Source of the DNA: Candidatus Methylomirabilia bacterium
GTDB taxonomy: Bacteria; Methylomirabilota; Methylomirabilia; Rokubacteriales; CSP1-6
DNA length: 64,000 nt
NCBI GenBank assembly: GCA_046758385.1
Contig: JBHIAB010000001.1
Coordinates: forward strand, 2,608-66,607
Direction: 5' to 3'
Under the pieces are notes generated by a model, which was not told the DNA's origin, ran no database searches, and saw nothing but the letters and a program-made list of their open reading frames with translations. Of the stretch, positions 45,781 to 61,737 are shown in pieces. How positions within the stretch are numbered: position 1 is the first letter of the stretch; each line of letters starts with the position of its first letter. A program made the position numbers and the translations under genes.

Positions 45781-45785
45781 TCCCT

Positions 45786-46622: not shown

Positions 46623-48364
46623 GGCTGGAGAGGCGGATTCAGAACGCATGAGAACGTGATGGTTGGGCGCCCGCTGATCCTGTTCGGCTTGGGCTTCTTC
46701 GGCTTCTTGCCCTTCTTATGGTCGTCATCATCGTCGTCGTCGTGTCCTTTCCCATGCCCACCACTCGAGGACGCGTTTTCCGCTAGGACGACGCCGGTGA
46801 TGGTGGGGCGGCCGCTGATACGGATCCGCCCATGCGCGGCGACGAGTCCGGTGAGAGGTTTGCTGGAGCTGATCTTGATCTCGTCGCCGGCCACCAACAG
46901 CGTATCGGTGAGGTGGGCGGTCATTGTGGGGCGTCCCGAGACTTTGATGTCTCCTGTGGCGAGTACAGTGACCCTCCACGATAACGCGCCGCTCCCCGCG
47001 CGACCCGAAATCTTGGCGTCCCCCTCGAAGAAATAGGTTCCATCGACGGCGGTCTTGCCGCTGAACGTCCACTTGGCAGGGTGCCCCGGCCGATATTTCC
47101 AGCCCTGGAACTTCTGTCCTTTGTGCAACGTTGCGAGGTGCTTCGGCGGGTCGTCGCCGTCGAAGACCTCCCCATTGGATTTCAGGTGAAACACCTGCCC
47201 GACGGGAAGATCGACCTTGGCGGCGGTCAGGAAGTCAGCCGGGTCGATCGCGGGGATGTCTTTTGGATCGAATCCTCCTCCGACACCGGGCCCGCCTATA
47301 TCTACCTTCTTTGAAGCCGAGAACTTCCCGCTGGCAGTAGCGTCCCCGGCGATCGACACGCGATCACGAATCTTGAGATCTCCATTCGCGTGGACGTTCC
47401 CACACTGTCCATTGATCGTTGCCCGGTCGTCGATCTTGAGATCCCCGTTCACCAGTATGGCGTCGGTCACGTTGAAGGCAATTAGCCCCACCGGGATCTT
47501 GACGTCGAGCCGGTTGACGATGTTCGACTTCAGGGCCACGTGCAAGGCTTCTGTCAGGGGGCGCCCGCCGAACTCGATCTCGGCGAACCTGACCCCCGCG
47601 GGCACAGAATCGAAGACGATGGTGACTTCGGATCCGTCGGGCCCCACCACCGTGGTCGGCTGACTGACGAGACTCACCTGCTGGCCGTCCTCCGGGAAGA
47701 AGAGGGTCGCGGTGACGTTCTTCGCGGGGTTCTTGCTCCTGCCCACAGTGACGGTCAAGAAGAGATGCCCTGCGTCCTGAAATGGTTCGGAGCTGATGTC
47801 GTCGCCGGTATCGAACAGGCCGTCTGGCCCAGCGCTGGTGATCTGACCGATCCGCACGGTCAGGGAGACGCCTCCGGAGGTCGGATCGGTGGACGGTACC
47901 GTGACCTCGGGGCAGGTGTAGCGAAAGCGGTTGCCCCAGCCGTCCTCCAGATGCTCATTCGTGAAAATCATCTCCTTGAAGTACGGCCCCTGCCACCCCA
48001 TCCCGAGCCCGCCCCGATTCGCGGTGTCGAAAAGCGCGGTCGAAGGGTTGAAACTGGAATCGCAGAGGGTGTGAGGCCCTTGGAGATTGTTCAGTTCTTC
48101 CAGGCTCTTCGGGACCCGGCCCACGTCGCCGATGAAGCCGAAGGTTGCCTCCCCGGGGATCCCGGCGATCACCTCCACTAGCTTGGCCAGCTTGCGGCGG
48201 GTCGCTTCTTCGTTTGAGACCGTGATGTCGAGAACCAGCGGGAGCGCCAGGGCGGCCCCCGTCGCAGCGAGGGCGAGGAGCACCAGCAGCCCGAGGAGCG
48301 TGAAGCCCCTGGTCCCTACGCTTCCTCCCACCTCATCGGTCACCCGTCGAGAGCCAAGTTCCAC
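46619..48364 (-). CDS. giant pseudopilin-like protein (581 aa) with beta-helix-like repeat domain and acidic/basic tail
   Basis: N-term ...VGTRG|FTLLGLLVLLALAATGA (Gly not Glu at +5). WQGPYF, DGWGNRFRY, SAGPDGLFDTGDDIS GspG motifs. Then repeated GDLKI/ISGRPTIT units. Tail GHGKGHDDDDDDDHKKGKKPKKPKPN. Confidence 0.6.
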   Translation of the reverse strand: MELGSRRVTDEVGGSVGTRGFTLLGLLVLLALAATGAALALPLVLDITVSNEEATRRKLAKLVEVIAGIPGEATFGFIGDVGRVPKSLEELNNLQGPHTLCDSSFNPSTALFDTANRGGLGMGWQGPYFKEMIFTNEHLEDGWGNRFRYTCPEVTVPSTDPTSGGVSLTVRIGQITSAGPDGLFDTGDDISSEPFQDAGHLFLTVTVGRSKNPAKNVTATLFFPEDGQQVSLVSQPTTVVGPDGSEVTIVFDSVPAGVRFAEIEFGGRPLTEALHVALKSNIVNRLDVKIPVGLIAFNVTDAILVNGDLKIDDRATINGQCGNVHANGDLKIRDRVSIAGDATASGKFSASKKVDIGGPGVGGGFDPKDIPAIDPADFLTAAKVDLPVGQVFHLKSNGEVFDGDDPPKHLATLHKGQKFQGWKYRPGHPAKWTFSGKTAVDGTYFFEGDAKISGRAGSGALSWRVTVLATGDIKVSGRPTMTAHLTDTLLVAGDEIKISSSKPLTGLVAAHGRIRISGRPTITGVVLAENASSSGGHGKGHDDDDDDDHKKGKKPKKPKPNRISGRPTITFSCVLNPPLQP

Positions 48365-48432
48365 CGCGCATCTACGATCTTTCGCTGGCAGGCCCTATCT
48401 CCCCTGACCTTATCCTCTCCCCCGGTCTATCG

Positions 48433-49059
48433 CTATTTGAGCCGGCTGCAGATGTCATCTCCGCCTGGAGCCGGCCCCGAATCCGCCGGGGAGTCGGGAT
48501 CGGTGTCGATGGTCCCATCCGGCCCCGCCGAGCAGGTCCACACCACCTTCGCCGGAGAGTCTGCGGGATTCGCATTGCCGATGTTTACCAGATAGCGGTT
48601 CCCCCAGGGGTCCTCAGTGATTTTCTCCAGGTACGGCCCCCGCCAACGAAACCGACCGTTCGAGGAGTATGGGGTGGTCCCGGGGGCGTTCTTGATCAGA
48701 TGATCCTCAAGATCGTCGGCCTTTCCCGGTGTGAACCATTTGTTGTTACCGGGGGGGTTGTCGATAGGATCGTTGCCCGGCCCTTGGAGGATGTCGAAGT
48801 CAGGGGTTCCTGTGGTCCGCGTGCCATCCGTATAGATCGGGAAATGGCCCACGTCTCGGGTGAGGCGGATGATGCTCGCCCCGATGACCTTGACATCTCC
48901 CTCGGCCTTTTCTCTCTTGGCATCTTCCACGTAGCTGATCACCATAGGAGTGATCGCCCCCAGGAGCAGGCCGATCACCGCCAGGACGACGATCATCTCC
49001 AAGAGGCTGATTCCCAACTCCCCTCCGAACTTCCGTCTCCTCATGCTTATCAGCTCCAT
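48433..49059 (-). CDS. gspG: pseudopilin, closest to canonical GspG
   Basis: G|ISLLEMIVVLAVIGLLLGAITP; WRGPYLEKITEDPWGNRYLV; SAGPDGTIDTDPD. Confidence 0.7.
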   Translation of the reverse strand: MELISMRRRKFGGELGISLLEMIVVLAVIGLLLGAITPMVISYVEDAKREKAEGDVKVIGASIIRLTRDVGHFPIYTDGTRTTGTPDFDILQGPGNDPIDNPPGNNKWFTPGKADDLEDHLIKNAPGTTPYSSNGRFRWRGPYLEKITEDPWGNRYLVNIGNANPADSPAKVVWTCSAGPDGTIDTDPDSPADSGPAPGGDDICSRLK

Positions 49060-49094
49060 TCCTTCAAGGATTGGAAAGTCTCGCGGGCTCCCGA

Positions 49095-49832
49095 TCAGGC
49101 TCCGGGCAAGATCGCGCTCGCCCTTCCCAGGTTCTTCCCTATATCATCAGATCCGGCGGCGACACTTTCCCGGTTCAGAGGCGTCTCGAGCAAACGGTCT
49201 GGGCCAACGGAGAGGATCCAGCCGTTGCCCAACACCCGCATGATCTCTGATAATCCCGCCTGACCCCGAATCGCGACCTCGCCGCCAAAGATCAGGGGTA
49301 GAACATTGATGATGTAGGCCCGGTCCCATGGGTCACTGATGACGGGTTCCATGTAGGGGCCCTGCCAGTCGGGAAAGTCGACCACACTCGGCCTTCTGAC
49401 CAGGTAGTCGTTGATGTCCAGGGCAGTGCTCGGAGAAAAATTCACGCAGCTCCGGCCGATAAAAACGGTGGCATCGAAGAAGCCGATGTTCAAGAAGTCC
49501 GGGAGGGGCGTGCCGAGCGTCGGATCTATAGATGTCGGCACCCCAGATTGGAGGAAGCACGGTCCGGCCCCCCCGACCACCCCGATCTTTTCCTCCCCGG
49601 GCCACTGGCGCGTGTCCTGGCGGAACTTCATCATGGCGTTGGCAAGGGTCAACAGCTCTCTGGCAGCCTTGGTCTCCTTCGCCTCCTCGATCCGATCCAT
49701 CGTCATGGGAATGGCTACGGACGCGACGATCGTGGTCATCGCGACGACCGCCGTAGTCTCGTAGAGGGTCACCCCGCGGCAATCCCTGAAGCGGGCGAGA
49801 AGGAATCTGAGCGTTCTGACGATGCGTCTCAT
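49095..49832 (-). CDS. pseudopilin, GspG-like (paralog 5)
   Basis: ...DCRG|VTLYETTAVVAMTTIVASVAIP; WQGPYMEPVISDPWDRAYIINV; SVGPDRLL. Confidence 0.7.
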   Translation of the reverse strand: MRRIVRTLRFLLARFRDCRGVTLYETTAVVAMTTIVASVAIPMTMDRIEEAKETKAARELLTLANAMMKFRQDTRQWPGEEKIGVVGGAGPCFLQSGVPTSIDPTLGTPLPDFLNIGFFDATVFIGRSCVNFSPSTALDINDYLVRRPSVVDFPDWQGPYMEPVISDPWDRAYIINVLPLIFGGEVAIRGQAGLSEIMRVLGNGWILSVGPDRLLETPLNRESVAAGSDDIGKNLGRASAILPGA

Positions 49833-50029
49833 GGCGTTGTCTTCTCGACATCTCTAACTGAGAGCGCACTCAAATGCGTCACGATTATAGCTGCACCCAA
49901 AGAATGGGGCCGGGGGGAGAGGAAGCGATGCCGCTCCCCCCGGTAAAGTCCCCCAAACGCCTTCTTCCAAGAAGTACTGGCGCGGCGCTGCTAAGACCCG
50001 CCTCGTGTCTTATGCGCTACTACTTGTCC

Positions 50030-50701
50030 CTAGTTTTGGACGATCTTCTTGCCGAGGCTCCGGCCGATGTCGTTACCATTCGGATCCAAGTCCGAATCTA
50101 CAAAGTCGGTGGTCAGGGTCTGGTCGGATCCACCCGAGATGACCCACCCGTAGCCCAAGTAATTGTGGGCACCCAAGTCCTCGGCGTCAAACAACGGGCG
50201 GGGGTTAAAGATATAGGCACGGCCCCAGGGATCCGCGGTGATCGGATCCATGTAGGGTCCATTCCAGTTGGAATAGCCTGAGGGCCCAGTGCTCGCCGAC
50301 AAGTAGGTGTTGAGGTCCACGGGCGGAGCGCAGGTATTATTGCCAAGGCAGGTGTTGGGAGTCAGGGTGAGGTCTGTCAGAGCGGGCAGTGGGGCGCTGC
50401 CGCTAACGAGGAAGATTGTTTGGTCTGGGATCCCATCGTTGCCGCTGGTATCCATCTCGAGTTCCCCAGGCCACTTTCCCGTGTCGTTGAAGAAGCTAAA
50501 GGCAGCCTTGAAGATGGTTTCCGTCTCCTGCTTCGCGGCAGTGCCCTCGGCGCTCTGAATCTGCTGGAGGGCCACAGGCACCGCGACGGCGGCGATAATC
50601 CCCGCCATGGCGACCGCCGCCGTGATCTCGTAGAGGCTGATGCCTCGTGAATCCCTGAGGTGCCTCAGCAACGCCTTGAACATTCTGGCCATCCGTCCCA
50701 T
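50030..50701 (-). CDS. pseudopilin, GspG-like (paralog 6)
   Basis: ...DSRG|ISLYEITAAVAMAGIIAAVAVP; WNGPYMDPITADPWGRAYIF. RBS GGAGGG 7 nt upstream of ATG 50701. Confidence 0.7.
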   Translation of the reverse strand: MGRMARMFKALLRHLRDSRGISLYEITAAVAMAGIIAAVAVPVALQQIQSAEGTAAKQETETIFKAAFSFFNDTGKWPGELEMDTSGNDGIPDQTIFLVSGSAPLPALTDLTLTPNTCLGNNTCAPPVDLNTYLSASTGPSGYSNWNGPYMDPITADPWGRAYIFNPRPLFDAEDLGAHNYLGYGWVISGGSDQTLTTDFVDSDLDPNGNDIGRSLGKKIVQN

Positions 50702-50753
50702 CTTCTCACCCTCCTTGTCTCGAGAGCTTCTCTCGAGATGTTATGGGTTTGCG

Positions 50754-51524
50754 TTAACTGACGCCAGACTGAACCTTCTCAATCCGCTTGCCAAGATTTT
50801 GCCCGACATCGTCTGTCGCAGGTGCGAGCACGGAGTCGGTCAGCCTTGTCTGGAGCAGCCGATCCGGCCCCACACTGAGGACCCAGGCATATCCCAGATC
50901 CCCCCCGGTCTCGATGGCCCCGGTAACGGCGTCCGGCGTGCCCGCGGCCCCGACACCGGCTGTGATCGCCTCGGCGAACATCAAGGGGAGGACATTGATG
51001 ACGTACGCCTGATTCCAGGGGTCAGCCGTAATGGGCTCCATGTAGGGACCCTGCCAGCTGGGGTAATCCACCGGGTTAGGCTTTCTGACCAGGTAGTCGT
51101 TGATGTTCAGGGCATTGGTGTGGCTGAAGGTCGCGCAGAGAGATGCCTGAGGCAGAAAGTCGCCGGTATCGATCGTTCCGATCTCAGCGCGCGTCAGCGT
51201 GGGAAGAAGCGCGCTCGTCTGTGGATCACTTCCTGGCCTCCCCGTCTGGAGGAAGCACGATGTGCCATCGGTCCTGATCTCCACCTCGCCGGGCATCCGG
51301 CCTGTGTCCTCGAAGAAGCTCGCGATAGCTTTGGTGATGATGGTCACTTCCTGGGCGGCCTTGGCACTCTTGGCTGCCTCTATCTTGTCCAGCGCCACCG
51401 GCAGAGCCACCGCCGCGAGGATGGCGGTCATGGCGACGACCGCCGTGGTCTCGTAAAGCGTGACCCCGCGGACATCCTTGAGGTGTCGGATAAGACCCCT
51501 GAGCAATCTCGTTACGGGCTTCAT
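50754..51524 (-). CDS. pseudopilin, GspG-like (paralog 7, promoter-proximal)
   Basis: Start chosen at MKPVTRLL (51524), preceded by GGAGG and the sigma-54 promoter. ...DVRG|VTLYETTAVVAMTAILAAVALP; WQGPYMEPITADPWNQAYVINV; SVGPDRLL. Confidence 0.7.
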   Translation of the reverse strand: MKPVTRLLRGLIRHLKDVRGVTLYETTAVVAMTAILAAVALPVALDKIEAAKSAKAAQEVTIITKAIASFFEDTGRMPGEVEIRTDGTSCFLQTGRPGSDPQTSALLPTLTRAEIGTIDTGDFLPQASLCATFSHTNALNINDYLVRKPNPVDYPSWQGPYMEPITADPWNQAYVINVLPLMFAEAITAGVGAAGTPDAVTGAIETGGDLGYAWVLSVGPDRLLQTRLTDSVLAPATDDVGQNLGKRIEKVQSGVS

Positions 51525-51555
51525 GTCCTTTGTCCTCCGCCGGTTGAGGCAGATA

Positions 51556-51571
51556 GCAATCATCGGGCCAG
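51556..51571 (-). promoter_or_regulatory. sigma-54 (RpoN) -24/-12 promoter
   Basis: Minus-strand reading CTGGCCCGATGATTGCT against consensus TGGCACG-N4-TTGCW. GG..GC spacing exactly 12. About 20-nt leader with GGAGG before ATG 51524. Confidence 0.5.
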
Positions 51572-51663
51572 CGTTAAGTGCTTGATTTCTTGGGGAAAAC
51601 GCCTCGAACAATAAGAGGAGAAAGCTACAAAATTTGGGAGTTCCCTACAAATCTTGAGGATCA

Positions 51664-52089
51664 TTAATCAGGGCCGTATCGATCGATAGCGGCCCGGACG
51701 GTGTCCAACACCCGCCTTGCCTTTGCCAGGGCGTCTCCCCCGTCTTCCGCATCGAAGAGCTGGCTAGCCGGGACCCCATCCGGTGACCCATAAAAGGCAG
51801 GCTCCCGGTCTAACGCCAAGCTGTCAGAGTCATAGGCCAGCCGGTCCGCCGCCTTCCGGTCAAGGACTTTCCTGCGGGCCAGCTCTTTTTTGATCAGCCG
51901 TCCAAGCAGGTGAGATTTCGGATACTCGATGCCCCACAGACGGAACAGGCCCTTGATCGCCAGCTCTGCGGCCTCCTGACACTTGCGTACCACTCGATGA
52001 TAATGTTCTGCCCGCTGAGACCCCTCGGCTTCTCTCAGGATGATCTCAGCGTCCGCCAGATACGATCGAGCGGCTCTGTCGTTCCTCAT
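51664..52089 (-). CDS. HEPN-domain protein (module 3)
   Basis: 141 aa helical. 4-bp overlap with MNT. Paralogous layout to 42584..43018. Confidence 0.65.
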   Translation of the reverse strand: MRNDRAARSYLADAEIILREAEGSQRAEHYHRVVRKCQEAAELAIKGLFRLWGIEYPKSHLLGRLIKKELARRKVLDRKAADRLAYDSDSLALDREPAFYGSPDGVPASQLFDAEDGGDALAKARRVLDTVRAAIDRYGPD

Positions 52090-52604
52090 AGCTCGATGAT
52101 CTCGCCGGGCCTGAGATCAGGCTTCAGCACCCAATACCAGCTCCCGTCGGGGAGAGACTTCTTTCGGGATCCCAGGGCACGCAATCGTTCGCGGACGACC
52201 TCCAATTCCTTGCGGAATTGTTCTCTGGGGTCGTAAAGAATCACCGCTTCTTCCACCATGTCGAGGAAGATGAGGGGGTGCGCCCTTGCTTCCTCCTCTG
52301 AAAGGGCAAGGAAGGCGGGTTCAAGGGGTCGGCCGCACGCCTCTAGGTCGCGATACTCTCTGCTTTCCCGAACCTCAGCCAGTAAGGGAAGAAAGCTCTT
52401 GGTCCTCTTGGCATAGCTCTTGGGAGGGTTCTGAAGGATAACCAAGATGTCTAAATCGCTACCCGGCCGATCAGTCCCTCTGGCGGCAGAGCCGAAGAGC
52501 GCCACCGCAATGAGCTGTTCCCCCAGGGCGTGCTTCAACGCGGCGCTGACCTTCCTCGCCAGAGCCATCACCTTCTCGGTATGACCCGGGAACTTTGTGC
52601 TCAT
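52086..52604 (-). CDS. MNT nucleotidyltransferase (module 3)
   Basis: Start at MSTKFPGHTEK (52604). LFGSAARGTDRPGSDLDILVIL. C-term YWVLKPDLRPGEIIEL. The ORF-track N-terminal extension (…GEGEGEGEG…) is translation of the palindromic repeat and is rejected. Confidence 0.7.
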   Translation of the reverse strand: MSTKFPGHTEKVMALARKVSAALKHALGEQLIAVALFGSAARGTDRPGSDLDILVILQNPPKSYAKRTKSFLPLLAEVRESREYRDLEACGRPLEPAFLALSEEEARAHPLIFLDMVEEAVILYDPREQFRKELEVVRERLRALGSRKKSLPDGSWYWVLKPDLRPGEIIEL

Positions 52605-52638
52605 GTTTGGATTCTTCCGGGTTCGACGTGGCTGCTGT

Positions 52639-52689
52639 CCTTCCCCCTCACCCTCGCCCTCTCCCCCAAAGGACCCAAAGGGGAGAGGG
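52639..52689. repeat. GC-rich palindromic intergenic repeat, copy 1 (CCCTCACCC..GCCCTCTCCCC-loop-GGGGAGAGGG)
   Basis: Perfect 10-bp inverted repeat with 13-nt loop, preceded by conserved CCCCTCACCCTCGCCCTCTCCC. Confidence 0.6.
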
Positions 52690-52705
52690 AACTCTGTCGA
52701 GGAGG

Positions 52706-54106
52706 TCAGCCGCCCTTGAAGCGCTCGGGGTCGATCCCATACTTTTTGACCCGGTACCACAGGCTCCGCTCGTTGATCCCGAGCCGCTTGGCGGCAACGG
52801 CCTGGACCCCTCGCGCTTCCCGGAGGGCTTCGATAATCCGTTCCCGCTCTAATGCGGCAAGGCGCTCGTCCAGGGAGCCTGCCGCCGCGGAACTCTCGGT
52901 CGCCGGCGCGGAGGGGTGGAGGTGCAGGGGGAGGTCTTCCTTCTGGATAAGCTCTCCCTCGGCCATGATCGCCGCGCGCTCGATGCAGTTTCGAAGCTCG
53001 CGGACGTTTCCCGGCCAGAAGTAGGCCATGAGCCGCTCCATCGCCTCACCGGACAGTCCCCTCACGTTCCTGTCCTCGGTGTCGGCGATCTCCTGGAGGA
53101 AACGCTCCACGAGGAGCGGGATGTCCCCCACCCGCTCTCGGAGCGGCGGAAGGACGATGGCGAAGACATTGAGGCGGTAGTAGAGGTCCTCCCTGAACTC
53201 CTTCCGTCGGACCGAGTCCGCCAGATCCTTGTTGGTGGCCGCGATGACGCGGACATCCACCCGAATCGGCTTGGTGCCCCCGACGCGGTAGATCTCCTGG
53301 TTCTCGATGGCCCGGAGGATCTTGGCCTGGGTCGTGAGGGCCATGTCTCCCACCTCGTCCAGGAAGAGGGTGCCCCCGTGGGCGAGCTCAAATTTGCCCG
53401 GCCTTTGCGCCGTGGCCCCGGTGAAGGCTCCCCGCTCGTGGCCGAAGAGCTCCGACTCGAGGAGACCGTCCGGGATGGCGGCGCAGTTGACCTTCACCAG
53501 CGGAGCCTCTCGTCTCGGGCCGTTTCGATGGACCAACTCGGCCACCAGCTCCTTCCCCGTCCCCGACTCCCCCTGGATGAGGACTGTCGCCTGGCTCCGG
53601 ACCACCTTCTCCAGGAGCACGAAGACCTCTTGCATCCGGCCGCTCTGCCCGATGATGCCGGGGAAGTCATACCGCCGCTGGAGGCGCTCACGGAGCTCTC
53701 GGACCTCGCGCTGCAGTAGCCGCTTCTCCAGCGCTCGAGCGATCACCACTTCCAACTCGTTCACCCTGAACGGTTTGGTGAAGAAATCGTAGGCCCCCCG
53801 AGCCAGGGCTTCCATGGCCTGCTGTTTAGTGGCTACCCCCGACATCACGATAACGATCAGATCCGGCGCGAAGGCCTTGGCCCGGCTTACGAACTCGATC
53901 CCGGAGAGTCCGGGAAGCTTCACGTCGGTCACGGCGATGTCGATAGTTTGAGAGCGCAGGCACTCGAGGGCCTTTTCGGCGGTCGAGGAAACCTCCACCG
54001 CATAGCCTTGCTTTGTCAGGGCTTCTTGAAGGGCGAAACGGACAGACTCCTCATCCTCCACCACGAGGATGGCGATGGACTCCGGCGCCACGCTACGCTC
54101 GGTCAT
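52706..54106 (-). CDS. sigma-54-dependent response regulator (NtrC/PilR family: REC + AAA+ + HTH)
   Basis: 466 aa. REC (LVVEDEESVRFAL...DIAVTDVKLPG). AAA+ with GESGTGKE Walker A and GAFTGA sigma-54 contact motif. C-terminal Fis-type HTH. Confidence 0.85.
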   Translation of the reverse strand: MTERSVAPESIAILVVEDEESVRFALQEALTKQGYAVEVSSTAEKALECLRSQTIDIAVTDVKLPGLSGIEFVSRAKAFAPDLIVIVMSGVATKQQAMEALARGAYDFFTKPFRVNELEVVIARALEKRLLQREVRELRERLQRRYDFPGIIGQSGRMQEVFVLLEKVVRSQATVLIQGESGTGKELVAELVHRNGPRREAPLVKVNCAAIPDGLLESELFGHERGAFTGATAQRPGKFELAHGGTLFLDEVGDMALTTQAKILRAIENQEIYRVGGTKPIRVDVRVIAATNKDLADSVRRKEFREDLYYRLNVFAIVLPPLRERVGDIPLLVERFLQEIADTEDRNVRGLSGEAMERLMAYFWPGNVRELRNCIERAAIMAEGELIQKEDLPLHLHPSAPATESSAAAGSLDERLAALERERIIEALREARGVQAVAAKRLGINERSLWYRVKKYGIDPERFKGG

Positions 54107-54143
54107 CGTGGGTCGCTCTCCGACCGTGTTAGCCTTGATCCGC

Positions 54144-54190
54144 CCTGCACCCTCACCCCAGCCCTCTCCCTGAAAGGGAGAGGGAGAGGA
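54144..54190. repeat. GC-rich palindromic intergenic repeat, copy 2
   Basis: CCTGCACCCTCACCCCAGCCCTCTCCC TGAAA GGGAGAGGG; 9-bp IR. Confidence 0.6.
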
Positions 54191-55708
54191 TCAAGAGGCC
54201 GTCGTGCCCTTAACGGGCAGGAGTATGGCGAACTCTGTGCCATGATCATGCGAGCTCCTTGCCTTGATCTCCCCCCCGTGATCGGCGACGGCACGATAGG
54301 CGATGGGGAGGCCAAGGCCGGACCCCTCCTTCTTCGTCGTGTAGAAGAGGGTGAAGATCCGGTCCAGATCCTCGGCCGGGATGTAGGAGCCGCTGTTGAT
54401 GACACGCACGGCGATGACCTGCCCGGGTTCTATGTCGGCCGGGGCTTCCTCCTGGCTTACGGCCACCGCAATCCGGCCACCCGCCGGGGTGGCCTCGAAG
54501 GCATTGATAATGATGTTCACGAACGCCTGGCTCAGACGATCCGGATTGCCCGAGATGGGAGGAAGGGAGGAGGGGATGAGCTTCTCCAGCTCCACCCCCT
54601 TCTCCCAAAAGCGCATCTCGCTCCATACCGTCGACACAGCGTCCGCCACGAGACTCTCGACCTGGCAGAGGACCGGTTCCCGGACCTGCACCTGGGCCAG
54701 CGTCCTGATCTCGTCGGTGAGGCGCCGGACCCGCTCCAGCTCCGCTTCGATTCGTTCCACGTAACGACGGTCGGGGCTATCCGGAGCAATAGTGTCGCCA
54801 ATAAGGTCGGTGAGGGTCTGAACCGCAAGGACGCTGCCGCCGATCTCATGGACGATGCTGGCCCCCAGCGCCCCCAACGCGGCCAGTTGATCCACGCGAC
54901 GGATCTCTCTCTCAATGGCCTGAACCTGAGCGAGATCCTGAATGGCGAGGATCGCCGCCCGGCTCTCTCCTATGTGCGAGTCTACCGGGCCAATGGTTCC
55001 CCTCACCATCACGCGTCTGCCATCCCGCAAGGCCAGAATGAGATGAGGGAGCGTCGTCGGCGTCTCGGCCGTGAAAGCCTCGCGCAACGCCCGAAGGAGC
55101 TGGGCCTGTCCCTCGCTCGGTTCCAGGACTTCCCACATTGTCTTCCCCACCAACTGCTCTGGCGCCAGACCGAGTATCCGACGGGCTTCGGCGTTGGCAT
55201 CCAGGATCTCCCCGGCGGGGCTGAGGGTGATGATTCCCTCCGGGAGGCGGTCGAGGATGTCTGTAGCCCTGGCGTACTTCTCAAAGGAGAGGAGGAGGTA
55301 GTTCAGGCGGTTGGTAAGCCCGGAGATTTCATCGGTTTCGCGCGCCGGCGGGCGCTCGGCCGAAGAAGGCATCGTCTGCTCCAGCCGGCCAAGCATCTGG
55401 CGGATGGGGTGAACGATGGCGACCGCGATGGCAATCCCGAGGAGAAGAGCCAGCCCTCCCCCGACACCGATCACCCATAAGGTGGTTTCCCGAAGCGCCT
55501 GGGCCTCAGCAATGGGGAGAAGCGCAAAAACGCCGGCGCCCAGCGACTGAGTCGTGAGGCGGATGGCCCACAACCCCACGGCCATGGCAAGTCCCATGAG
55601 GACCAGGGGGAGGAACACGATCAGACGGATGCCGGTCAGCCGTCTGGCCCGTCCAATGACGCGGCGAAGGGTAAGCCCCTGCCGCCTGTCAGCTACCTGC
55701 GATTTCAT
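54191..55708 (-). CDS. sensor histidine kinase with PAS domain (PilS/NtrB-like partner of the sigma-54 regulator)
   Basis: 505 aa. Two TM helices, PAS-like segment, H-box LAALGALGASIVHEIGGSV. ATP-binding N/G1/G2 boxes (INAFEAT, GSGLGL). Confidence 0.8.
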   Translation of the reverse strand: MKSQVADRRQGLTLRRVIGRARRLTGIRLIVFLPLVLMGLAMAVGLWAIRLTTQSLGAGVFALLPIAEAQALRETTLWVIGVGGGLALLLGIAIAVAIVHPIRQMLGRLEQTMPSSAERPPARETDEISGLTNRLNYLLLSFEKYARATDILDRLPEGIITLSPAGEILDANAEARRILGLAPEQLVGKTMWEVLEPSEGQAQLLRALREAFTAETPTTLPHLILALRDGRRVMVRGTIGPVDSHIGESRAAILAIQDLAQVQAIEREIRRVDQLAALGALGASIVHEIGGSVLAVQTLTDLIGDTIAPDSPDRRYVERIEAELERVRRLTDEIRTLAQVQVREPVLCQVESLVADAVSTVWSEMRFWEKGVELEKLIPSSLPPISGNPDRLSQAFVNIIINAFEATPAGGRIAVAVSQEEAPADIEPGQVIAVRVINSGSYIPAEDLDRIFTLFYTTKKEGSGLGLPIAYRAVADHGGEIKARSSHDHGTEFAILLPVKGTTAS

Positions 55709-55732
55709 GCCGGGTGGAGGTGATTTTCCCCC

Positions 55733-55775
55733 TCACCCCGCCCTCTCCCCCAGTGGGGGCGAGCGACAATGGGCC
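55733..55775. repeat. GC-rich palindromic intergenic repeat, copy 3 (degenerate stem)
   Basis: TTTTCCCCCTCACCCCGCCCTCTCCCCC AGT GGGGGCGAG. Confidence 0.5.
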
Positions 55776-55825
55776 AGTGGGGGCCGGATTCCTTCGGATC
55801 AGGGTTAAAAGACTGCTCAGAATAT

Positions 55826-55993
55826 GAGAGAGGTCACGACGCCAAACCACGTGACAGTCACGGAGGTCACCACGATGGCGACCAGCCATTTGAAACTCTT
55901 GTCGATCCGGCCCTCCACCTCCCGCTGCGATTCCGCTATCGCCTTTCGCAGCTCGCCGATCTCGGAAATGACGCGCTCAAAGCCCTGCTCCAT
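55826..55993 (-). CDS. small membrane protein (55 aa), unannotated in ORF track
   Basis: GGAGG 7 nt upstream of ATG 55993. MEQGFERVISEIGELRKAIAESQREVEGRIDKSFKWLVAIVVTSVTVTWFGVVTSLIF: amphipathic helix + C-terminal TM. Confidence 0.35.
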
Positions 55994-56071
55994 GTCTTAT
56001 CCTCCTGTTCCATGTTCGCTTCGCTCTATCCAACCATCTGGCTTCAGCGGGAAGCCGCGCTTCGGCTCCTT

Positions 56072-56638
56072 TCAACGCTCGGCCTCGAAGATGGGAATGG
56101 CCTCTCCCTCGAGCTCGATTCGACGGCGCCGGCCAGCCCGTTCCAGCACCACCCCGTCGGGACGGATCTCCACGACCCGCTCCTCCCCGAGCCGCTCTCC
56201 CTCGCTCAAGAGACGGCCATCGATGGAGGCCACTTTCTCTGAGCCCGAGATGATGACAGCCTTCACGGTGTAGGAAGGAAGCGGGGCGGGCGGAGGCGGG
56301 GGAGGCAACGGCTTGGCGACGGGACTCTTGGCACTCTTGGGGGCACGGAGGGCCCGCTCCTCCTCAGCCGTCAGGAACGGATCTCGTCCCCAAGTCCCCT
56401 CGAACCGCTTGAGCCACAATGCGTAGTCATCCCTGGCAAGGATGGCGACCGCAGTGCGAGAGGGAGTGGAGCTAGGTCCGGGCTCGTCAAGCCTTGCCGG
56501 TGCTTGAGCAACTGGCCGCCGGGCCGGAGACCGCCCCCTGAACCTTTTTGTGAGGGGCGAGGTGAAGAAGGCCCACACCATCGTTGCCAGCAGCAGGACC
56601 GTAATGACGATGCGCCGGATCTCCACTACTTCCCCCAC
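56072..56638 (-). CDS. PilP/GspC-like secretin-interacting protein
   Basis: 188 aa. N-terminal TM, Pro-rich linker (PPPPPPAP). C-terminal beta-domain YTVKAVIISGSEKVASIDGRLLSEGERLGEERVVEIRPDGVVL. Confidence 0.45.
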   Translation of the reverse strand: MGEVVEIRRIVITVLLLATMVWAFFTSPLTKRFRGRSPARRPVAQAPARLDEPGPSSTPSRTAVAILARDDYALWLKRFEGTWGRDPFLTAEEERALRAPKSAKSPVAKPLPPPPPPAPLPSYTVKAVIISGSEKVASIDGRLLSEGERLGEERVVEIRPDGVVLERAGRRRRIELEGEAIPIFEAER

Positions 56639-57270
56639 CGGAAGGTCCTGAGTTGCATCTCCGTACCGAGCTGGCCGTCTTCGTGCTGCACCTGCACGGA
56701 TTCCACTGCCACATACATGGAAAGGCTGCGGAGGCCTTCGAGAAACCGTACGAGATGGCGATAGCGATGAACCGCCCTCAGCCGGATGATCAAGGGGCTG
56801 GCCGTGAGTCCACGGGGCACTCTGAAGGATGAAGATCGTGGACGTTCAGAGCGTGAGGGACCCCGGGACCGACGCCCGCGAGATGCTTCCCCATCGCTTG
56901 GGGGGCTTTGAAGGTTGAGGCTGACGAGTTGCATGCCGGCCGAGCGAGCCAGATCTGCCACGGCCTCCAGAGCGCTGGGGAGAGCCTGCTCGGGAGGGAA
57001 GCGATCTCGCAGGCGGGCCTCCAACTGCTTCCAGAGCTTCCGCTCCTCCTCACCGACGGGTGGCACCGAACGTTGCTGCTCACGCACCACTCGGCGCTCT
57101 GTCTCCCCACGGGCTAATTGGGCCTTGAGCATCCTGATCTCTCGATACTTTGGGGCCACGAGTCCCAGGTATCCCCCGACCGCAAGGAGGCCGAGAAGCC
57201 CCATCACCATCGCGGCCTGTGCCTTGAAGGGCAAGCGCTGGAAATTGGGAAGCTGGGGTAGCTGAGGCAC
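56626..57270 (-). CDS. PilO/GspM-like inner-membrane assembly protein
   Basis: 214 aa. Single N-terminal TM, coiled coil, periplasmic domain. Position between PilMN-like and PilP-like genes. Confidence 0.45.
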   Translation of the reverse strand: MPQLPQLPNFQRLPFKAQAAMVMGLLGLLAVGGYLGLVAPKYREIRMLKAQLARGETERRVVREQQRSVPPVGEEERKLWKQLEARLRDRFPPEQALPSALEAVADLARSAGMQLVSLNLQSPPSDGEASRGRRSRGPSRSERPRSSSFRVPRGLTASPLIIRLRAVHRYRHLVRFLEGLRSLSMYVAVESVQVQHEDGQLGTEMQLRTFRWGK

Positions 57271-58830
57271 TTACCGCAGCTCTTTCAAGTGAAGTGTCAG
57301 TTCGAAGGCGAGGCGGTCCTCCTCGGCCGTGACCATCTCTTGGGTCGATTGGGGTGGCTGGGCCTTGCGCCGGAGGTCTCTCGCCCGCCTCCCCTCTTTG
57401 CTCCGGCGCTGGCTCGTCTGGACCTCGGGCCTCAGTGCCCCGTACCTCACCTCGAAAAAGAACGGCGAATCCCCGAGGCCGAAGTAGAAGCGGTTGAACT
57501 CTGATTGAGCCCTGGCGATATCGGCGAACTCCACGGCCCCTGTGAGCCTCATACGAGTGCCAGCTTTATCCCTGGACAGGGCCAGCTCTTCCAGGCGCAG
57601 ATGATCCGGGGCCAGGCGGCTTATCTCCTTCAGGACATCGGCCAGCGGCGGCCCCCCCAAGGGGTCTTGGGTGAGCAGGTGGATTCGCTGGCGCTGGATC
57701 TCCCGCTCCCGCAGGATCCGTTCAACCCCCCTGACCCTGGCCAGATGTGTCTGTTTCGCCGCGGTCCTGACTGCCAGGGCCCGGCGATAACTCGCCACCT
57801 CCCAAGCAGCACCCCAGAAGGAATAGCCCAAAGAAAGGACAAGCAGCGCCGCAACGACCCCGCCTACCGTCTTCAACAGCCGTGACTGCCGCGCTTCGAC
57901 AATGGATCGAGGCAGGAGGTTAGCGGTCTCGCGAGAGGACAGCATCGCCACCCCCAGAGGGAGGAGAAAGGCCCCTGCGGGAACACCCGCCAGCTCCTCG
58001 GTCTCCGGCGGAAGGACTCCCCGAATCGCCTCGTTGAGGTTGAACACCGACACTCCGGGGAGACGGGCTTCGACCTCGGGAAGGACCCGCTCGAAATTGG
58101 CGTCTACGCTCCCCACCACCACGGCGCCGACGGGCTCTCCCTTCGAGGCGACCGTGTATTGGCGGACTGTTCGCTGAAATTCGGTCACGAACCACTCGCT
58201 GAGCTGGAGACCGGGAACCGCGAGCTGAGGGATCTCTCGCGTCAGCCGGATCGTCCCCCTTTCGACCACGGTGACGGTAAGCGCGCGGAACCCCCAGTGA
58301 ACGACCGCCGTGGGGCGGTCCAACGAGAATGGCGAGAGAGAGCGCGCCACCTCCAGTGAAGCCAACGGTGCCGTGGTCACCAAGTGAGGGATGAGACGGG
58401 CGTCCAGCAGGGCGGACAGGGGTTGGTCCACCTCCTTCCGCGGGACCGCAACCACCAGCACCTCATCCTTCCGGACCGCGTCCTCGGTCTGCCCGAGTGT
58501 CTGGTGCCCCACGAGCAGATTCCCCCCGAGCTCCCGAGCCAGCCCTCGTTCCAGGTAGAGCTGTCGCTCCCTCCCGGTCATGGAGGGAAGGACCTCGATG
58601 CGGTGGGTCGAGTCAGGAGGAGACAAAACCAGATGGGCCTGCCGCCCCGTGATCCCTCCCTCGACCATCAGGGACTTGAGGAGGGCTCCGTCCAAGGTCC
58701 CCGCGGGGACCGCTCTGGCCGTGGCCTTGAGGATGGTGGGTGGATCAGTGCTGCGATCCACCTCCACGGCGATCAACCGCGTGGCGGCGATCTCCAGCCC
58801 GATGGTTCGGTGTGAGGTCAGCACCGCCAT
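57271..58830 (-). CDS. PilM-PilN-like fusion (GspL-like) assembly protein
   Basis: 519 aa. N-terminal actin-like PilM segment (IGLEIAATRLIAVEV). Internal TM (VGGVVAALLVLSLGYSFWGAAW). PilN-like C-terminus. Confidence 0.55.
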   Translation of the reverse strand: MAVLTSHRTIGLEIAATRLIAVEVDRSTDPPTILKATARAVPAGTLDGALLKSLMVEGGITGRQAHLVLSPPDSTHRIEVLPSMTGRERQLYLERGLARELGGNLLVGHQTLGQTEDAVRKDEVLVVAVPRKEVDQPLSALLDARLIPHLVTTAPLASLEVARSLSPFSLDRPTAVVHWGFRALTVTVVERGTIRLTREIPQLAVPGLQLSEWFVTEFQRTVRQYTVASKGEPVGAVVVGSVDANFERVLPEVEARLPGVSVFNLNEAIRGVLPPETEELAGVPAGAFLLPLGVAMLSSRETANLLPRSIVEARQSRLLKTVGGVVAALLVLSLGYSFWGAAWEVASYRRALAVRTAAKQTHLARVRGVERILREREIQRQRIHLLTQDPLGGPPLADVLKEISRLAPDHLRLEELALSRDKAGTRMRLTGAVEFADIARAQSEFNRFYFGLGDSPFFFEVRYGALRPEVQTSQRRSKEGRRARDLRRKAQPPQSTQEMVTAEEDRLAFELTLHLKELR

Positions 58831-58840
58831 TACCTCAGTC

Positions 58841-60058
58841 TCATCGGCCCGTGTATCTCATTTTCCCCAGGATTGAATAGATGGGGAGGTAGACGGACAG
58901 GATGGAGCCCAAGACGACGACGGCCATGACGGCAATGACGGCGGGCTCGATGAGGGCAAAGAGCCGTCGAACGGTGTCGGGTACTTCACGGTCGTAGTAC
59001 TGAGAGATCTTGGCCAGACTGTCGCCCAGGTTGCCGGACATCTCCCCGGTGGAGACCATTCTGACCACGAGGGGCGGAAACTCTCCGGAGAGCCGGAGGG
59101 CGTCGGTAAAGGACATCCCTGCCACCACTCGCTCACGTACCCGGGCCACCCCTCGGGCGATCACTGCGTTCCCCACGACCCGCTCCAGGACCATCAGGGT
59201 TAGCGCGAACTCCACTCCCGCTCGGTGAAGGGTTTCCAGGAAGTGCGCAAAGCGGCTCATGGCAATCTTCTGAAGGAGACCCCCGACGACTGGCACCTGC
59301 AGTTTGACGCGATCGACGAGAAGCCGGCCAGCCGGCACCCTCACCGCCAGTCGGACGGCCACGACAAGTCCGAAGATCCCGAGGAAGACAAGCATCCAGT
59401 TGGCTGCCATGAAATCGCCAATCGCCAGGACGATCTTGGTGGGAAGAGGCATGGGGGCCCCGGTCTTGGCGAGGAGCCCCTTGAATTTTGGCAGGACGAA
59501 CGTAAAGAGGACCGTCGCCAGGATCCCCAGGGCCGTCATGAGAAGGGCGGGGTAGATGCTGGCCTGGCGGAGCTGGCTCGCCAACCCCTCCTGCCACTCC
59601 AGGGAGGCCACCAGCTCCATGAGCACCGCGTCGAGCTTTCCAGAGGCCTCGCCAGCACGGACGGTGGCCACATAGACCTCTGAGAATACCTTGGGCAGGC
59701 TCGCCATGGCCTCCGAGAGCATGACCCCTCTCTCCAGCTTCTGAACGAGGATCTCCGTGACGGTCCTGACGCGCGGGCTAGCCTCTCTGGCGTACTCCTT
59801 GAGAGCAGGGAGCAGCGGGACCCCGGCGGACAAGATGGTGCCCAGATGTACGGTGAAGAGAATGAGCTCCCTGCGGGAGATTCGACCCACGGACTCTCGA
59901 GGCTGCCGCGTCGCTCTCGGGGCCCGCTCCTGGACGGAGATGACGTAGAGCCCCCTGTCCGAAAGCATGGAATCCACCTGATCTTCGGTGGGGGCGTCCA
60001 TCACCCCGGTCACGGTCTTCCCCATCTCATCCTTGGCTCTGTAAGCAAACTGCGGCAT
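58841..60058 (-). CDS. gspF: type II secretion/type IV pilus platform protein GspF/PilC
   Basis: Start at MPQFAYRAKDEMGK (60058). Duplicated T2SSF domains, three TM segments. Confidence 0.85.
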   Translation of the reverse strand: MPQFAYRAKDEMGKTVTGVMDAPTEDQVDSMLSDRGLYVISVQERAPRATRQPRESVGRISRRELILFTVHLGTILSAGVPLLPALKEYAREASPRVRTVTEILVQKLERGVMLSEAMASLPKVFSEVYVATVRAGEASGKLDAVLMELVASLEWQEGLASQLRQASIYPALLMTALGILATVLFTFVLPKFKGLLAKTGAPMPLPTKIVLAIGDFMAANWMLVFLGIFGLVVAVRLAVRVPAGRLLVDRVKLQVPVVGGLLQKIAMSRFAHFLETLHRAGVEFALTLMVLERVVGNAVIARGVARVRERVVAGMSFTDALRLSGEFPPLVVRMVSTGEMSGNLGDSLAKISQYYDREVPDTVRRLFALIEPAVIAVMAVVVLGSILSVYLPIYSILGKMRYTGR

Positions 60059-60069
60059 CTTCCGGATTC

Positions 60070-61737
60070 CTACTCGATGGAATGCGTGACCCGGATGATC
60101 TCGTCCAGGGTCGTGATCCCGGCCGCCACCTTTTTCATGCCGTCCTCGAGCATGGTCTCCATCCCTTGCTCCCGGGCGACTTTCAGGAGAAGTCCCGGCT
60201 CGGCTTTTTGGGTAATGAGCTGACCGACCTGCGGGCTCGCCAGGAGAATCTCGAAGATCGCAATCCGGCCCCGGTATCCGGTGAAGTTGCATGCCCCACA
60301 CCCCTTGCCCTCGTAGAAGGTCGCAATCGCCTGGGCCGTCGGTCCCGCTCGGGCCAACAGCTCATCGTCGGGAGTGACCTCGGCCTTGCAGTTCCGGCAG
60401 ATGACCCGGACTAGACGCTGGGCAAGAACGGCGAGGAGGGAGGATGCCACGAGGAAGGGCTCGACTCCCATCTCCAGCATGCGGGGAATCGTTCCGACGG
60501 CATCGTTGGTGTGAAACGTGCTGAAGACGAGGTGTCCGGTCAGGGCAGCCCGCACCGTGGTCTCGACCGTTTCCAGATCTCGCATCTCCCCCACGAGGAT
60601 GATGTCCGGGTCGTGGCGAAGAACCGAGCGAAGTCCCGACGCGAAGGTCAGCCCCGCCCGCGGGTTGATCTGAGATTGCCGGATCAGCGGGATCTCGTAC
60701 TCCACTGGATCCTCGAGGGTGATGATGTTGACCTCCAGCGAGTTGATGTGCGAGAGGGCCGAGTAGAGGGTGGTGGTTTTCCCCGAGCCGGTCGGCCCAG
60801 TCACAAGGATCAAGCCATAGGGCTTTTGAATAAGCCGCTTGAAGATGGCCAGGTGCTCCTGTGAAAACCCGAGCTGCTCGAGGCCAAAGCTTCGGCTCTT
60901 ATCGAGGACACGGATGACCAGGTTTTCCCCGTGGATGGTGGGAAACGTCGAGACTCTCAGGTCCAACCGATGGGGACCCTCGTAGTACTGAATGCGGCCA
61001 TCCTGAGGGACGCGGCTCTCGGAGATGTTCAGATTGGCAAGGATTTTCACGCGGGTGACGATCCCCGAGTGAAGAGAGCTGGGAATGGTCGGACCCGAAT
61101 AGAGGATCCCGTCGAGTCGGAATCGCGTGCGAACCGTCCTCTCGTCGGGTTCGATATGGATATCGGTGGCACCGTCCTGGGCGGCCTTCCTGAATAGGTC
61201 GTCAACGACTTGAACAATGGGAGTCTCGACGCTCACGCTGCCCGCTGCTCCCGCCGCGCGACCCTCCGCCTGCTGGATTTCCTCTTCCGTGGCCCCCTTG
61301 CGTCCCGCCTGCCCGGAATAGAATTTGTTGATCACCTGACGAATCTGGCTTTCCTTGGCAGACACCACCTTGATGAAGCGCTGGGTAGTCCGCTGAAGCT
61401 CGTCGATCGCGGCCACATCAAAAATATTGGCCATGGCCACCGTCAGGGAGAACTCCTCCTGGGAGATCGGGACCAACGTGTGTTTCTTTGCGAAGGTGTC
61501 TGGGACGAGCGCAAACAGGTCGGGGTCAAAGTCATGTTTGTCGAGGTCGATATGGGGAATGCCGGCCTGCTCGGCCAGGGCCTGGGAGAGGTCGTCGGCC
61601 GTGGCAAAGCCCATGCGGATCAGCACCTCTCCGAACAGCTCACCCGAGGTCCGCGCCTCACGCAGGGTCGCGTCACGCTGCTCTTTCGTTATCACCCCGG
61701 TCTCGACCAGGTACTCCCCAAGCGGCTTCCGAGCCAT
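60070..61737 (-). CDS. gspE: type II secretion/MSHA-type assembly ATPase GspE/MshE with N-terminal MshEN (c-di-GMP-binding) domain
   Basis: 555 aa. Walker A GPTGSGKTTTLY, Asp box, Walker B, tetracysteine CRNCKAEV...GKGCGAC. N-term has two MshEN-type motifs (PLGEYLVETGVITKEQRDATLREA and LFGEVLIRMGFATADDLSQALAEQ). Confidence 0.9.
   Translation of the reverse strand: MARKPLGEYLVETGVITKEQRDATLREARTSGELFGEVLIRMGFATADDLSQALAEQAGIPHIDLDKHDFDPDLFALVPDTFAKKHTLVPISQEEFSLTVAMANIFDVAAIDELQRTTQRFIKVVSAKESQIRQVINKFYSGQAGRKGATEEEIQQAEGRAAGAAGSVSVETPIVQVVDDLFRKAAQDGATDIHIEPDERTVRTRFRLDGILYSGPTIPSSLHSGIVTRVKILANLNISESRVPQDGRIQYYEGPHRLDLRVSTFPTIHGENLVIRVLDKSRSFGLEQLGFSQEHLAIFKRLIQKPYGLILVTGPTGSGKTTTLYSALSHINSLEVNIITLEDPVEYEIPLIRQSQINPRAGLTFASGLRSVLRHDPDIILVGEMRDLETVETTVRAALTGHLVFSTFHTNDAVGTIPRMLEMGVEPFLVASSLLAVLAQRLVRVICRNCKAEVTPDDELLARAGPTAQAIATFYEGKGCGACNFTGYRGRIAIFEILLASPQVGQLITQKAEPGLLLKVAREQGMETMLEDGMKKVAAGITTLDEIIRVTHSIE

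Follow-up and report, generated by a model that had tools for sequence, protein, structure and literature searches.

We analysed a 64-kb stretch of DNA, here called the window, that belongs to a genome bin of Candidatus Methylomirabilia (Rokubacteria/NC10 phylum); the same region is also present on contig JBHIAZ010000060 of assembly GCA_046758825.1 (L025). The phylum is little studied, and its Rokubacteria lineages are, to our knowledge, known only from single-cell and metagenome genomes. Within a long minus-strand run of genes for a type IV pilus or a machine like the type II secretion system (T2SS), the window encodes, in order of reading, a PilP-like protein, a sensor histidine kinase, a sigma-54 activator, an MNT-type nucleotidyltransferase, a HEPN-domain protein and then seven consecutive pilin-like proteins (51524-44917); the remainder of the window holds ordinary chromosomal housekeeping genes. 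Our main subject is the 139-bp intergenic region between the HEPN gene and the first pilin gene (51525-51663). We consider it likely that this region is a complete sigma-54 enhancer-dependent promoter for the first pilin gene or genes, and the regulator encoded about 1 kb upstream is its predicted activator.

The kinase gene (54191-55708, minus strand) carries the Pfam domains PAS_4, HisKA and HATPase_c. The activator gene (52706-54106, minus strand) encodes an enhancer-binding response regulator with Response_reg (E-value 2.9e-25), Sigma54_activat (1.4e-71), AAA_lid_14 and a Fis-type HTH_8 domain (3.9e-12), and its translation retains the GAFTGA motif, Walker A (GESGTGKE), Walker B (DEVGDM) and the receiver Asp (predicted Asp61). 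An earlier reading of the window, made from the letters and open reading frames (ORFs) only and called here the sequence-only reading, had named a PAS, HisKA and HATPase sensor kinase, a GAFTGA-containing sigma-54 activator and, next after the activator, a HEPN/MNT pair; the Pfam domains of all of these fall where it had put them. A hydropathy scan of the kinase N-terminus gives two transmembrane segments (approximately residues 23-53 and 75-107) separated by a loop of about 22 residues, with the PAS domain following. Two segments are also seen in three of the four orthologs scanned (L026, L028 and L029), and the fourth, from L027, shows one segment, its gene call starting inside the first. 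The best NCBIfam match of the kinase is AtoS, at 196 bits against a cutoff of 646; the activator is of the NtrC class, with AtoC and NtrC as its best families, both below their cutoffs (AtoC, 480 bits against 714). Neither protein matched a PilR- or PilS-specific NCBIfam family. The nearest solved structures to the activator in a PDB search are the Aquifex NtrC-family proteins 4l4u and 1ny5, and that search, like a tblastn against plasmids, returned generic NtrC-family proteins only.

We compared the window with nine related Rokubacteria loci (L026, L027, L028, L029, L034, L035, L094, L095 and L096; ten loci with the window). Most were taken from contigs found by protein search; a metagenome scan contributed seven short close contigs, of which L034 and L035 kept the promoter region and were used. 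The kinase orthologs in these loci are 53-59% identical and adjoin pilin arrays. The activator orthologs are 67-73% identical, and the helix-turn-helix (HTH) helix is almost invariant across the loci, which fits a conserved DNA target.

The -24/-12 element of the intergenic region is TGGCCCGATGATTGCT (51570-51555, minus strand). Promoter positions are given here with the second G of the GG counted as -24. The GG (51569-51568) and the GC (51557-51556) lie exactly 10 nt apart, and the TGGC-N7-TTGC spacing is exact. With one mismatch to TGGCAC-N5-TTGCW, it is the sole match within one mismatch in the 128 kb formed by both strands of the window, and it also tops an approximate position weight matrix, scoring 14.6 bits against 10.8 for the runner-up. 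That runner-up (54242-54227) lies inside the kinase coding sequence, and we treat it as a chance match. The element is noncoding; its -12 position is 32 nt before the ATG at 51524, with a GGAGG Shine-Dalgarno sequence between them (51538-51534, minus strand, 9 nt before the ATG). These results uphold two proposals of the sequence-only reading, that the only good -24/-12 element of the window stands in front of the first pilin gene and that the GGAGG-ATG arrangement fixes the start of that gene at 51524; the resulting 256-residue product is identical, over its full length (100% identity and coverage), to the public gene call P0001 of a Candidatus Methylomirabilia bin. Placed by the usual sigma-54 geometry, some 11-12 nt past the -12 GC, transcription would start at 51543-51545 (near 51544, minus strand), leaving a leader of about 20 nt. 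A scan for sigma-70 promoters over 43500-56500 made no call within 51525-51663, and an Rfam scan of the whole window returned a tRNA (6122-6205) only and nothing recognisable as a riboswitch or other known RNA around the pilin promoter.

Upstream of this element, the sequence-only reading had singled out 51572-51663 for a search for tandem regulator-binding repeats, and two predicted activator sites, conserved in sequence and spacing, were found there. The proximal site, CTCCCAAATTTTGTAG (51640-51625, minus strand; -96 to -81, centre about -88; 19.2 bits), is an imperfect 16-nt version of the palindrome CTNCAAAATTTGNAG, which is common to the nine related loci. The distal site, CCTCAAGATTTGTAG (51659-51645, minus strand; -115 to -101, centre about -108; 17.4 bits), begins 4 nt beyond the HEPN stop codon and aligns with the distal sites of the relatives. 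When the matrix was built from the nine other loci only, CTCCCAAATTTTGTAG and CCTCAAGATTTGTAG were the best and second-best matches on both strands of the 64-kb window. The next match, at 42387 (14.8 bits), lies in or at the start of a receiver-only gene and within the range of shuffled sequence, so that we regard it as chance. The full matrix found no other site in approximately 100 kb of related loci. The PilR-type sequence TGT-N11-AGA has no match in 51572-51663 by eye; the conserved motif is CTNCAAAATTTGNAG.

Between the enhancer and the -24/-12 element lies AATCAAGCACTTA (51587-51575, minus strand; -43 to -31), an exact match to the integration host factor (IHF) consensus WATCAANNNNTTR and the sole such match in the window, where 0.25 are expected. 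Exact matches stand at the same position in L027, L028 and L096; those of L026 and L035 lie at -76, and the L095 site, at -66, has one mismatch. Counting the window, the site is exact in six of the ten loci and within one mismatch in seven. The three independent consensus scans, for sigma-54, IHF and enhancer, each have their best or sole match in the window within one 105-bp stretch, in canonical order and orientation. We estimate the chance of the IHF and enhancer matches falling there, given the sigma-54 site, at about 1e-6.

The same arrangement is found in the relatives. Homologs of pilin 1 at 50-59% identity were returned by the protein search only from Rokubacteria/Methylomirabilia. Two further sources of loci were set aside: a scan of a genome collection with the pilin alignment gave relatives of at most 31% identity from other phyla, which are unusable for footprinting, and L097 (P0056) was excluded because its pilin homolog lies beside MlaC and has neither enhancer nor sigma-54 element. 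In each related locus where the sequence reaches, the pilin array is preceded, on its own strand, by an orthologous kinase and activator. The genes beyond the kinase vary, with a TPR gene in L026 and L028, PilC in L027 and the PilP-like gene in the window, and this variability marks kinase, activator, promoter and pilins as the conserved block. The element YGG(C/T)NNGA-N3-TTGCT, with its GG-N10-GC spacing, is kept in all nine related loci upstream of a pilin or TPR-pilin operon, and the palindrome is accompanied by a second, more degenerate copy 20-21 bp upstream. In all seven loci of the short class, the window among them, the AT core of the palindrome begins at -92/-91; the corresponding position is -134 for L095 and -156 for both L026 and L035. 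The core is thus displaced by 42 or 64 bp in these three, a distance of 4.0 or 6.1 helical turns. When the sequences are aligned without gaps from -24, identity between the window and its relatives is 42-58% in the three motif blocks and 16-29% between them, as would be expected if selection acted on the motifs alone.

The position of this promoter cassette relative to its upstream neighbour varies. The enhancer starts about 15-50 nt after the activator stop in L027, L028, L035 and L095 and about 270 nt past it in L026, where it follows GC-rich hairpin-forming sequence. The cassette stays with the downstream operon: in L026-L028, L035 and L095 it follows the activator gene, in the window it follows HEPN, in L029, L094 and L096 it follows a cyclase gene, and in L034 the end of an uncharacterised ORF. 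Two genes separate activator from pilins in L029, L094 and L096, one encoding a CHASE2-guanylate cyclase and the other a TPR protein. The cassette precedes the TPR gene in these three loci and in L034, with the first pilin within about 60 nt after the TPR gene.

Some observations on single relatives may be recorded here. The sister-clade arrangement is seen at L029 4045-8516, L094 670-5113, L096 488-4910 and L034 256-2484; in L029 the CHASE2-guanylate/adenylate cyclase gene overlaps the activator stop, and the TPR gene encodes about 725 residues. The cyclase insertion hints at a link between cyclic nucleotides and pilus regulation. In L027 (9165-9190) the -24/-12 element sits inside a perfect 8-bp inverted repeat, GTGTGAAG-TTTG-CTTCACAC. 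L028 and L029 have a weaker form of this repeat and the window has none; in the clade of L027 it might serve as an operator that overlaps the promoter, or it might be coincidental. Further afield, a distant metagenomic locus (L038, 253-2709) has an NtrC-class activator, then a strong sigma-54 promoter (TGGCACGAAGATTGCT) and then a pilin, and in five such loci (L038, L041, L044, L048 and L050) strong sigma-54 elements lie 76-160 nt upstream of GspG-like pilins that are 24-32% identical to pilin 1. The arrangement recurs beyond the pilin 1 clade, although these metagenome contigs carry no taxonomic labels.

The genes present, the motifs with their arrangement and distances, and the extent to which related loci retain them together suggested to us a model in which the membrane kinase, with its two transmembrane segments and PAS domain, would phosphorylate the receiver domain of the NtrC-class activator. 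Activator dimers would then occupy the two palindromes, which are centred near -88 and -108 and face the same side of the helix, while an IHF-like protein would bend the DNA at the WATCAANNNNTTR site between -43 and -31. The bend would bring the activator oligomer into contact with sigma-54 polymerase at TGGCCC-N5-TTGCT, where ATP hydrolysis would open the promoter. Transcription would proceed from about 51544 into pilins 1 and 2, and into the later pilins as far as the hairpin that follows pilin 2 is passed. The pairing of protein and site, the start site, the sensed signal and the length of the operon are inferred.

Several points weigh against this model. The -24/-12 motif taken alone is not significant and occurs at chance frequency: about 1.1 matches within one mismatch are expected per shuffled window, at least one is present in 72 of 100 shuffles, and TGGCCCGATGATTGCT itself has C in place of the consensus A at -22. 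The significance of TGGCCCGATGATTGCT comes instead from its position, from the co-located IHF and enhancer motifs and from its conservation in the relatives. Likewise, a score of 19 bits for a single enhancer site is reached in 2 of 30 block shuffles, so that the strength of this evidence lies in the pairing and position of the two sites. The IHF consensus WATCAANNNNTTR is proteobacterial, and in three of the ten loci (L029, L034 and L094) the corresponding position is degenerate, if AT-rich. A search of the 64 kb for ORFs with an RpoN box found no rpoN, and tblastn with approximate E. coli IHF queries found no IHF or HU genes in the window; the intact GAFTGA activator would itself imply that the organism has sigma-54. 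The link between the activator and its sites is drawn from conserved adjacency only. Finally, the hairpin and the 197-nt gap (49833-50029) after pilin 2 may limit the transcript.

This last point concerns the extent of the operon. The seven pilin-like genes are all on the minus strand and carry the class-III signal G↓(V/I/F)(T/S)L(Y/L/I)E, with gene 5 lacking Glu5; the pilins are of 200-260 residues, with leaders of 16-20 residues and Val or Ile at +1. Pfam T2SSG is recognised in five of the seven, pilins 1-4 and 7, with a sub-cutoff match in pilin 6, and N_methyl in both pilin 6 and pilin 7. Pilin 1 (50754-51524, 256 residues) has a 20-residue leader ending in RG, followed by VTLYE, and an NCBIfam GspG match below cutoff. 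Pilin 2 (50030-50701, 223 residues) is the ortholog of the relatives' fourth pilin. After it comes the GC-rich hairpin CCGGGGGGAG...CTCTCCCCCCGG (49910-49943, minus strand), and then pilin 3 (49095-49832, 245 residues), pilin 4 (48433-49059, 208 residues, or 203 as called in L025), a large pilin-like protein of up to 581 residues (46619-48364, signal G↓FTLLG), pilin 6 (45786-46649, 287 residues) and pilin 7 (44917-45780, about 287 residues from its MMRLPIL start). The large protein has repeated "ISGRPT" beta-helix-like segments, with a weak bactofilin match, and an Asp/Lys-rich tail, HDDDDDDDHKKGKKPKKPKP; it is distant from the relatives' large fifth gene, at 27% identity over the N-terminal 130 residues. 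In the relatives, a receiver-only gene directly follows the large pilin-like gene that ends the array.

The foremost alternative is that the sigma-54 promoter is real and drives pilins 1 and 2 only, with the hairpin at 49910-49943 terminating or strongly attenuating transcription and pilins 3-7 expressed separately or at a much lower level. The 197-nt gap that holds the hairpin stands out against gaps of 35-70 nt or overlaps elsewhere in the array. The relatives' ortholog of pilin 2, their fourth pilin, is also followed by a strong hairpin and by a 100-130-nt gap before the large pilin-like gene; such GC hairpins, without clear U-tracts, lie after the p4-type pilin in the window and at 12264-12376 in L026, 12200-12326 in L027 and 4577-4676 in L095. 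The order of the array is, moreover, rearranged: numbering the window genes W1-W7 and the relatives' p1-p5, W1 and W3 resemble p2/p1, W2 resembles p4, W4 resembles p3, and W5-W7 resemble p5. Against a break after pilin 2, the hairpin has no canonical U-tract behind it (ATTCTTTGGG) and went uncalled in the terminator scan, whose number of calls over 43500-56500 is at chance level. The gap contains an isolated TATAAT only, with no sigma-70, sigma-54 or enhancer match, and the seven genes are closely packed on the same strand. We judge a restriction to pilins 1 and 2 to be rather less probable than its opposite, with a substantial chance all the same. Read-through with attenuation, and termination with downstream initiation, are both possible after pilin 2. 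The post-p4 hairpin might serve as a conserved attenuator or in stabilising mRNA 3' ends, and in this way determine how much of the early pilins is made relative to the late ones. The sequence-only reading had taken the seven-gene array as one enhancer-dependent regulon. The promoter before pilin 1 agrees with this; the hairpin, the 197-nt gap and the rearranged order leave the proposed extent unproven.

A second alternative keeps the sigma-54-dependent promoter and assigns its activation to an enhancer-binding protein encoded elsewhere, the adjacent pair controlling the assembly genes or itself. The adjacent regulator is indeed generic NtrC-class with no family-specific assignment, and about 1 kb of MNT/HEPN sequence, or two genes in L029, L094 and L096, separates regulator from enhancer. 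The block of kinase, activator, promoter and pilins is nevertheless the sole invariant part of these loci, the upstream neighbours differing (PilP, PilC or TPR); the HTH and the enhancer are both conserved, and no second enhancer/sigma-54 pair is present in the window or in the related loci. Activator genes also usually adjoin their targets (PMC2725144). We regard a distant activator as improbable. Least probable of all, with a very slight chance in our estimate, is that the -24/-12 match is fortuitous, the pilins being transcribed from another promoter, for instance of sigma-70 type, or by read-through from the kinase, activator, MNT and HEPN genes and the palindromes being operators of an unrelated regulator or nucleoid protein: the one chance match expected per window, the A missing at -22, the 8-bp inverted repeat around the L027 element as a possible operator and the same-strand genes upstream speak for it, but GG-N10-GC and TTGCT are kept in ten of ten loci amid randomised surroundings, no sigma-70-like promoter was called in the intergenic region, a dedicated and conserved sigma-54 activator is adjacent, and the integral helical phasing between enhancer and -24 is expected of looping between activator and sigma-54, not of an unrelated operator.

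An enhancer-dependent promoter read by the neighbouring activator is the interpretation that we retain, and the MNT/HEPN pair lies outside its conserved logic. The MNT gene (52086-52604, minus strand; Pfam NTP_transf_2) has a GS...DLD motif that can be read in the sequence as GSAARGTDRPGSDLDIL, of the GS-X-DxD type; its NCBIfam MntA_antitoxin match reaches 31.8 bits against a cutoff of 60. The HEPN gene (51664-52089, minus strand; Pfam HEPN) overlaps the MNT stop by 4 nt (52086-52089), so that the two adjacent genes have the layout of a type VII-like toxin-antitoxin pair. Together with a GC-rich element that resembles repetitive extragenic palindromes (REPs), the pair accounts for the approximately 1.04 kb between the activator stop at 52706 and the distal enhancer site at 51659. 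No HEPN or MNT gene lies between activator and pilins in L026-L029, L035 or L095. Since these relatives lack the pair and have the promoter intact, we take it to be a later lineage-specific insertion that left the activator stop and the enhancer undamaged.

The REP-like element (repeat family D10) is about 34 nt long and forms the hairpin CCCTCTCCC...GGGAGAGGG, followed by a (C/G)NGGGTGAGGG tail. Its three copies flank the kinase and activator genes: copy 1, with the hairpin CCCTCTCCCC...GGGGAGAGGG, lies between the activator stop and the MNT start (52639-52672), copy 2 within the 84 nt that separate the kinase stop codon from the start of the activator gene (54144-54177), and copy 3 just upstream of the kinase start (55723-55756). 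In the relatives, the kinase and activator genes overlap by 4 nt, in contrast to the 84-nt gap with its REP-like copy in the window. Searched by pattern, the rest of the window yielded no more copies.

A second MNT/HEPN pair (MNT 43015-43551, HEPN 42584-43018, both minus strand) lies just past the last pilin gene, and there is a third short MNT-like ORF at 44459-44710 (minus strand), so that MNT/HEPN genes stand at both ends of the pilin array. A recent duplication of the two pairs driving recombination across the array can be eliminated because the proteins are 36-38% identical, as old paralogs. In the same region, an ORF at 43995-44480 (minus strand, 161 residues) combines a hydrophobic segment at its N-terminus with a tandem pair of 120-nt repeats of 95% identity (RETQELI...REAEGNRQLLQQMSRE) and has no Pfam match.

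The minus-strand run upstream of the kinase encodes the assembly machine. It comprises an MshM-like AAA+/SPOR protein (63004-63990), a TPR protein (61841-63007), an MshE/PilB-type ATPase (60070-61737), PilC/GspF (58841-60301), a weakly PilM-like protein of 519 residues (57271-58830), a PilO-like protein (56626-57270) and the PilP-like protein (56072-56638). The ATPase bears an N-terminal MshEN-type domain for binding cyclic di-GMP (Pfam MshEN, with the NCBIfam c-di-GMP motif above cutoff), and pilus assembly may respond to this nucleotide independently of transcriptional control. Neither a secretin nor a prepilin peptidase is encoded within the window, and the relative L026 has genes for both. 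Immediately ahead of the kinase gene is a 58-residue ORF (55817-55993, minus strand) with a C-terminal hydrophobic segment; the relatives have one or two small ORFs (53-93 residues) at this place. Far from the pilus genes, window positions 4000-10000 have a G+C content of 0.58-0.60 against about 0.66 and contain the tRNA at 6122-6205 (plus strand), then ORFs with no Pfam match and a DNA methylase (N6_N4_Mtase; 7164-8228, plus strand). This stretch may be a small integrated element.

These results provide a concrete model of pilus expression for Methylomirabilota/Rokubacteria, with a promoter, a predicted start, two activator sites, a bend site and a candidate regulator pair, and the conserved motif can be used to find further regulon members in Rokubacteria genomes. 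Textbook PilR/RpoN/IHF logic is predicted to reach well beyond the Proteobacteria; the understanding of sigma-54 or pilin regulation itself is unchanged. A bolder proposal, which we put forward as speculation and think unlikely to hold in full, is that CTNCAAAATTTGNAG, in its tandem arrangement at 20-21 bp, is a previously undescribed palindromic enhancer read by the Rokubacteria/Methylomirabilota activator, that enhancer, IHF site and sigma-54 element form a portable module that has survived gene insertions (MNT/HEPN in the window, CHASE2-cyclase and TPR in the sister clade), and that the bracketing HEPN/MNT genes could couple toxin-antitoxin or defence functions to a filament resembling a phage receptor.

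Promoters of the NtrC type that use IHF, such as E. coli glnHp2, Klebsiella nifH and P. putida Pu, have tandem dimer sites about 80-150 bp upstream, an IHF-induced bend, a -24/-12 core and helical phasing. Compared with these, the layout in the window is compact, with the proximal site centred at -88 and the IHF consensus reaching to -31, and its targets are pilins. Pilus genes have been remarked upon as present in the Rokubacteria literature (PMC5712423). The cluster at 56072-63990 shares with MSHA-type and T2SS-like clusters an MshE-type ATPase with MshEN, an MshM-like protein, an MshN-like TPR protein, PilC, PilM/N, PilO and PilP-like proteins, and GspG-type pilins. It differs from them in that the window lacks genes for a secretin and a prepilin peptidase and that the pilins have 200-260 residues, with 16-20-residue leaders and Val/Ile at +1.

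The closest parallels in regulation are with other pilin systems, in which this logic has been established by experiment. In P. aeruginosa pilA is under PilSR control, and related systems are described from Geobacter, Myxococcus, Kingella, Xanthomonas and Lysobacter (PMC6058289, PMC2725144); in Geobacter, control is by PilR and RpoN, and pilA lies immediately downstream of pilR (PMC2725144). The window resembles this type in encoding an NtrC-class regulator and a kinase upstream of a pilin gene that has a sigma-54-dependent promoter, in our case predicted. The order is kinase, activator, MNT-HEPN and pilin in the window, and kinase, activator and pilin directly in relatives. There are also differences. 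The PilS of P. aeruginosa has six transmembrane segments and senses PilA (PMC6058289), whereas the window kinase has two with a short loop, so that it seems PilS-like in its cytoplasmic domains only; P. aeruginosa PilR binds TGT-N11-AGA and GTCT elements (PMC6058289), unlike the CTNCAAAATTTGNAG motif of the window; and a toxin-antitoxin-like MNT/HEPN pair stands between the window regulator and its target. Of the PilSR/RpoN control advanced by the sequence-only reading, the logic of activator, -24/-12 element and pilin stands, conserved as it is in the nine loci; an identification with PilSR proper is weakened by the two transmembrane segments instead of six and by the lack of a match to any PilSR-specific family, and the HEPN/MNT pair is no part of the logic. 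The kinase-activator pair would work like PilSR, with membership of PilSR by orthology unproven.

Commensal Neisseria offer a further likeness, since control of pilE by RpoN, IHF and Npa/Nps has been established experimentally there (PMC6528607). As in the window, a two-component kinase and an NtrC-class activator are accompanied by an activator-binding sequence, an intervening IHF site and a GG-N10-GC element before the major pilin (PMC6528607). The Neisseria regulator genes, however, follow parC, away from pilE, whereas those of the window lie within the pilus cluster, and the window system belongs to Methylomirabilota, has another enhancer sequence and an array of GspG-like long-leader pilins, and is a prediction only. 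The regulatory design is well known, and the novelty lies in predicting it for Methylomirabilota/Rokubacteria and in the enhancer motif specific to this clade.

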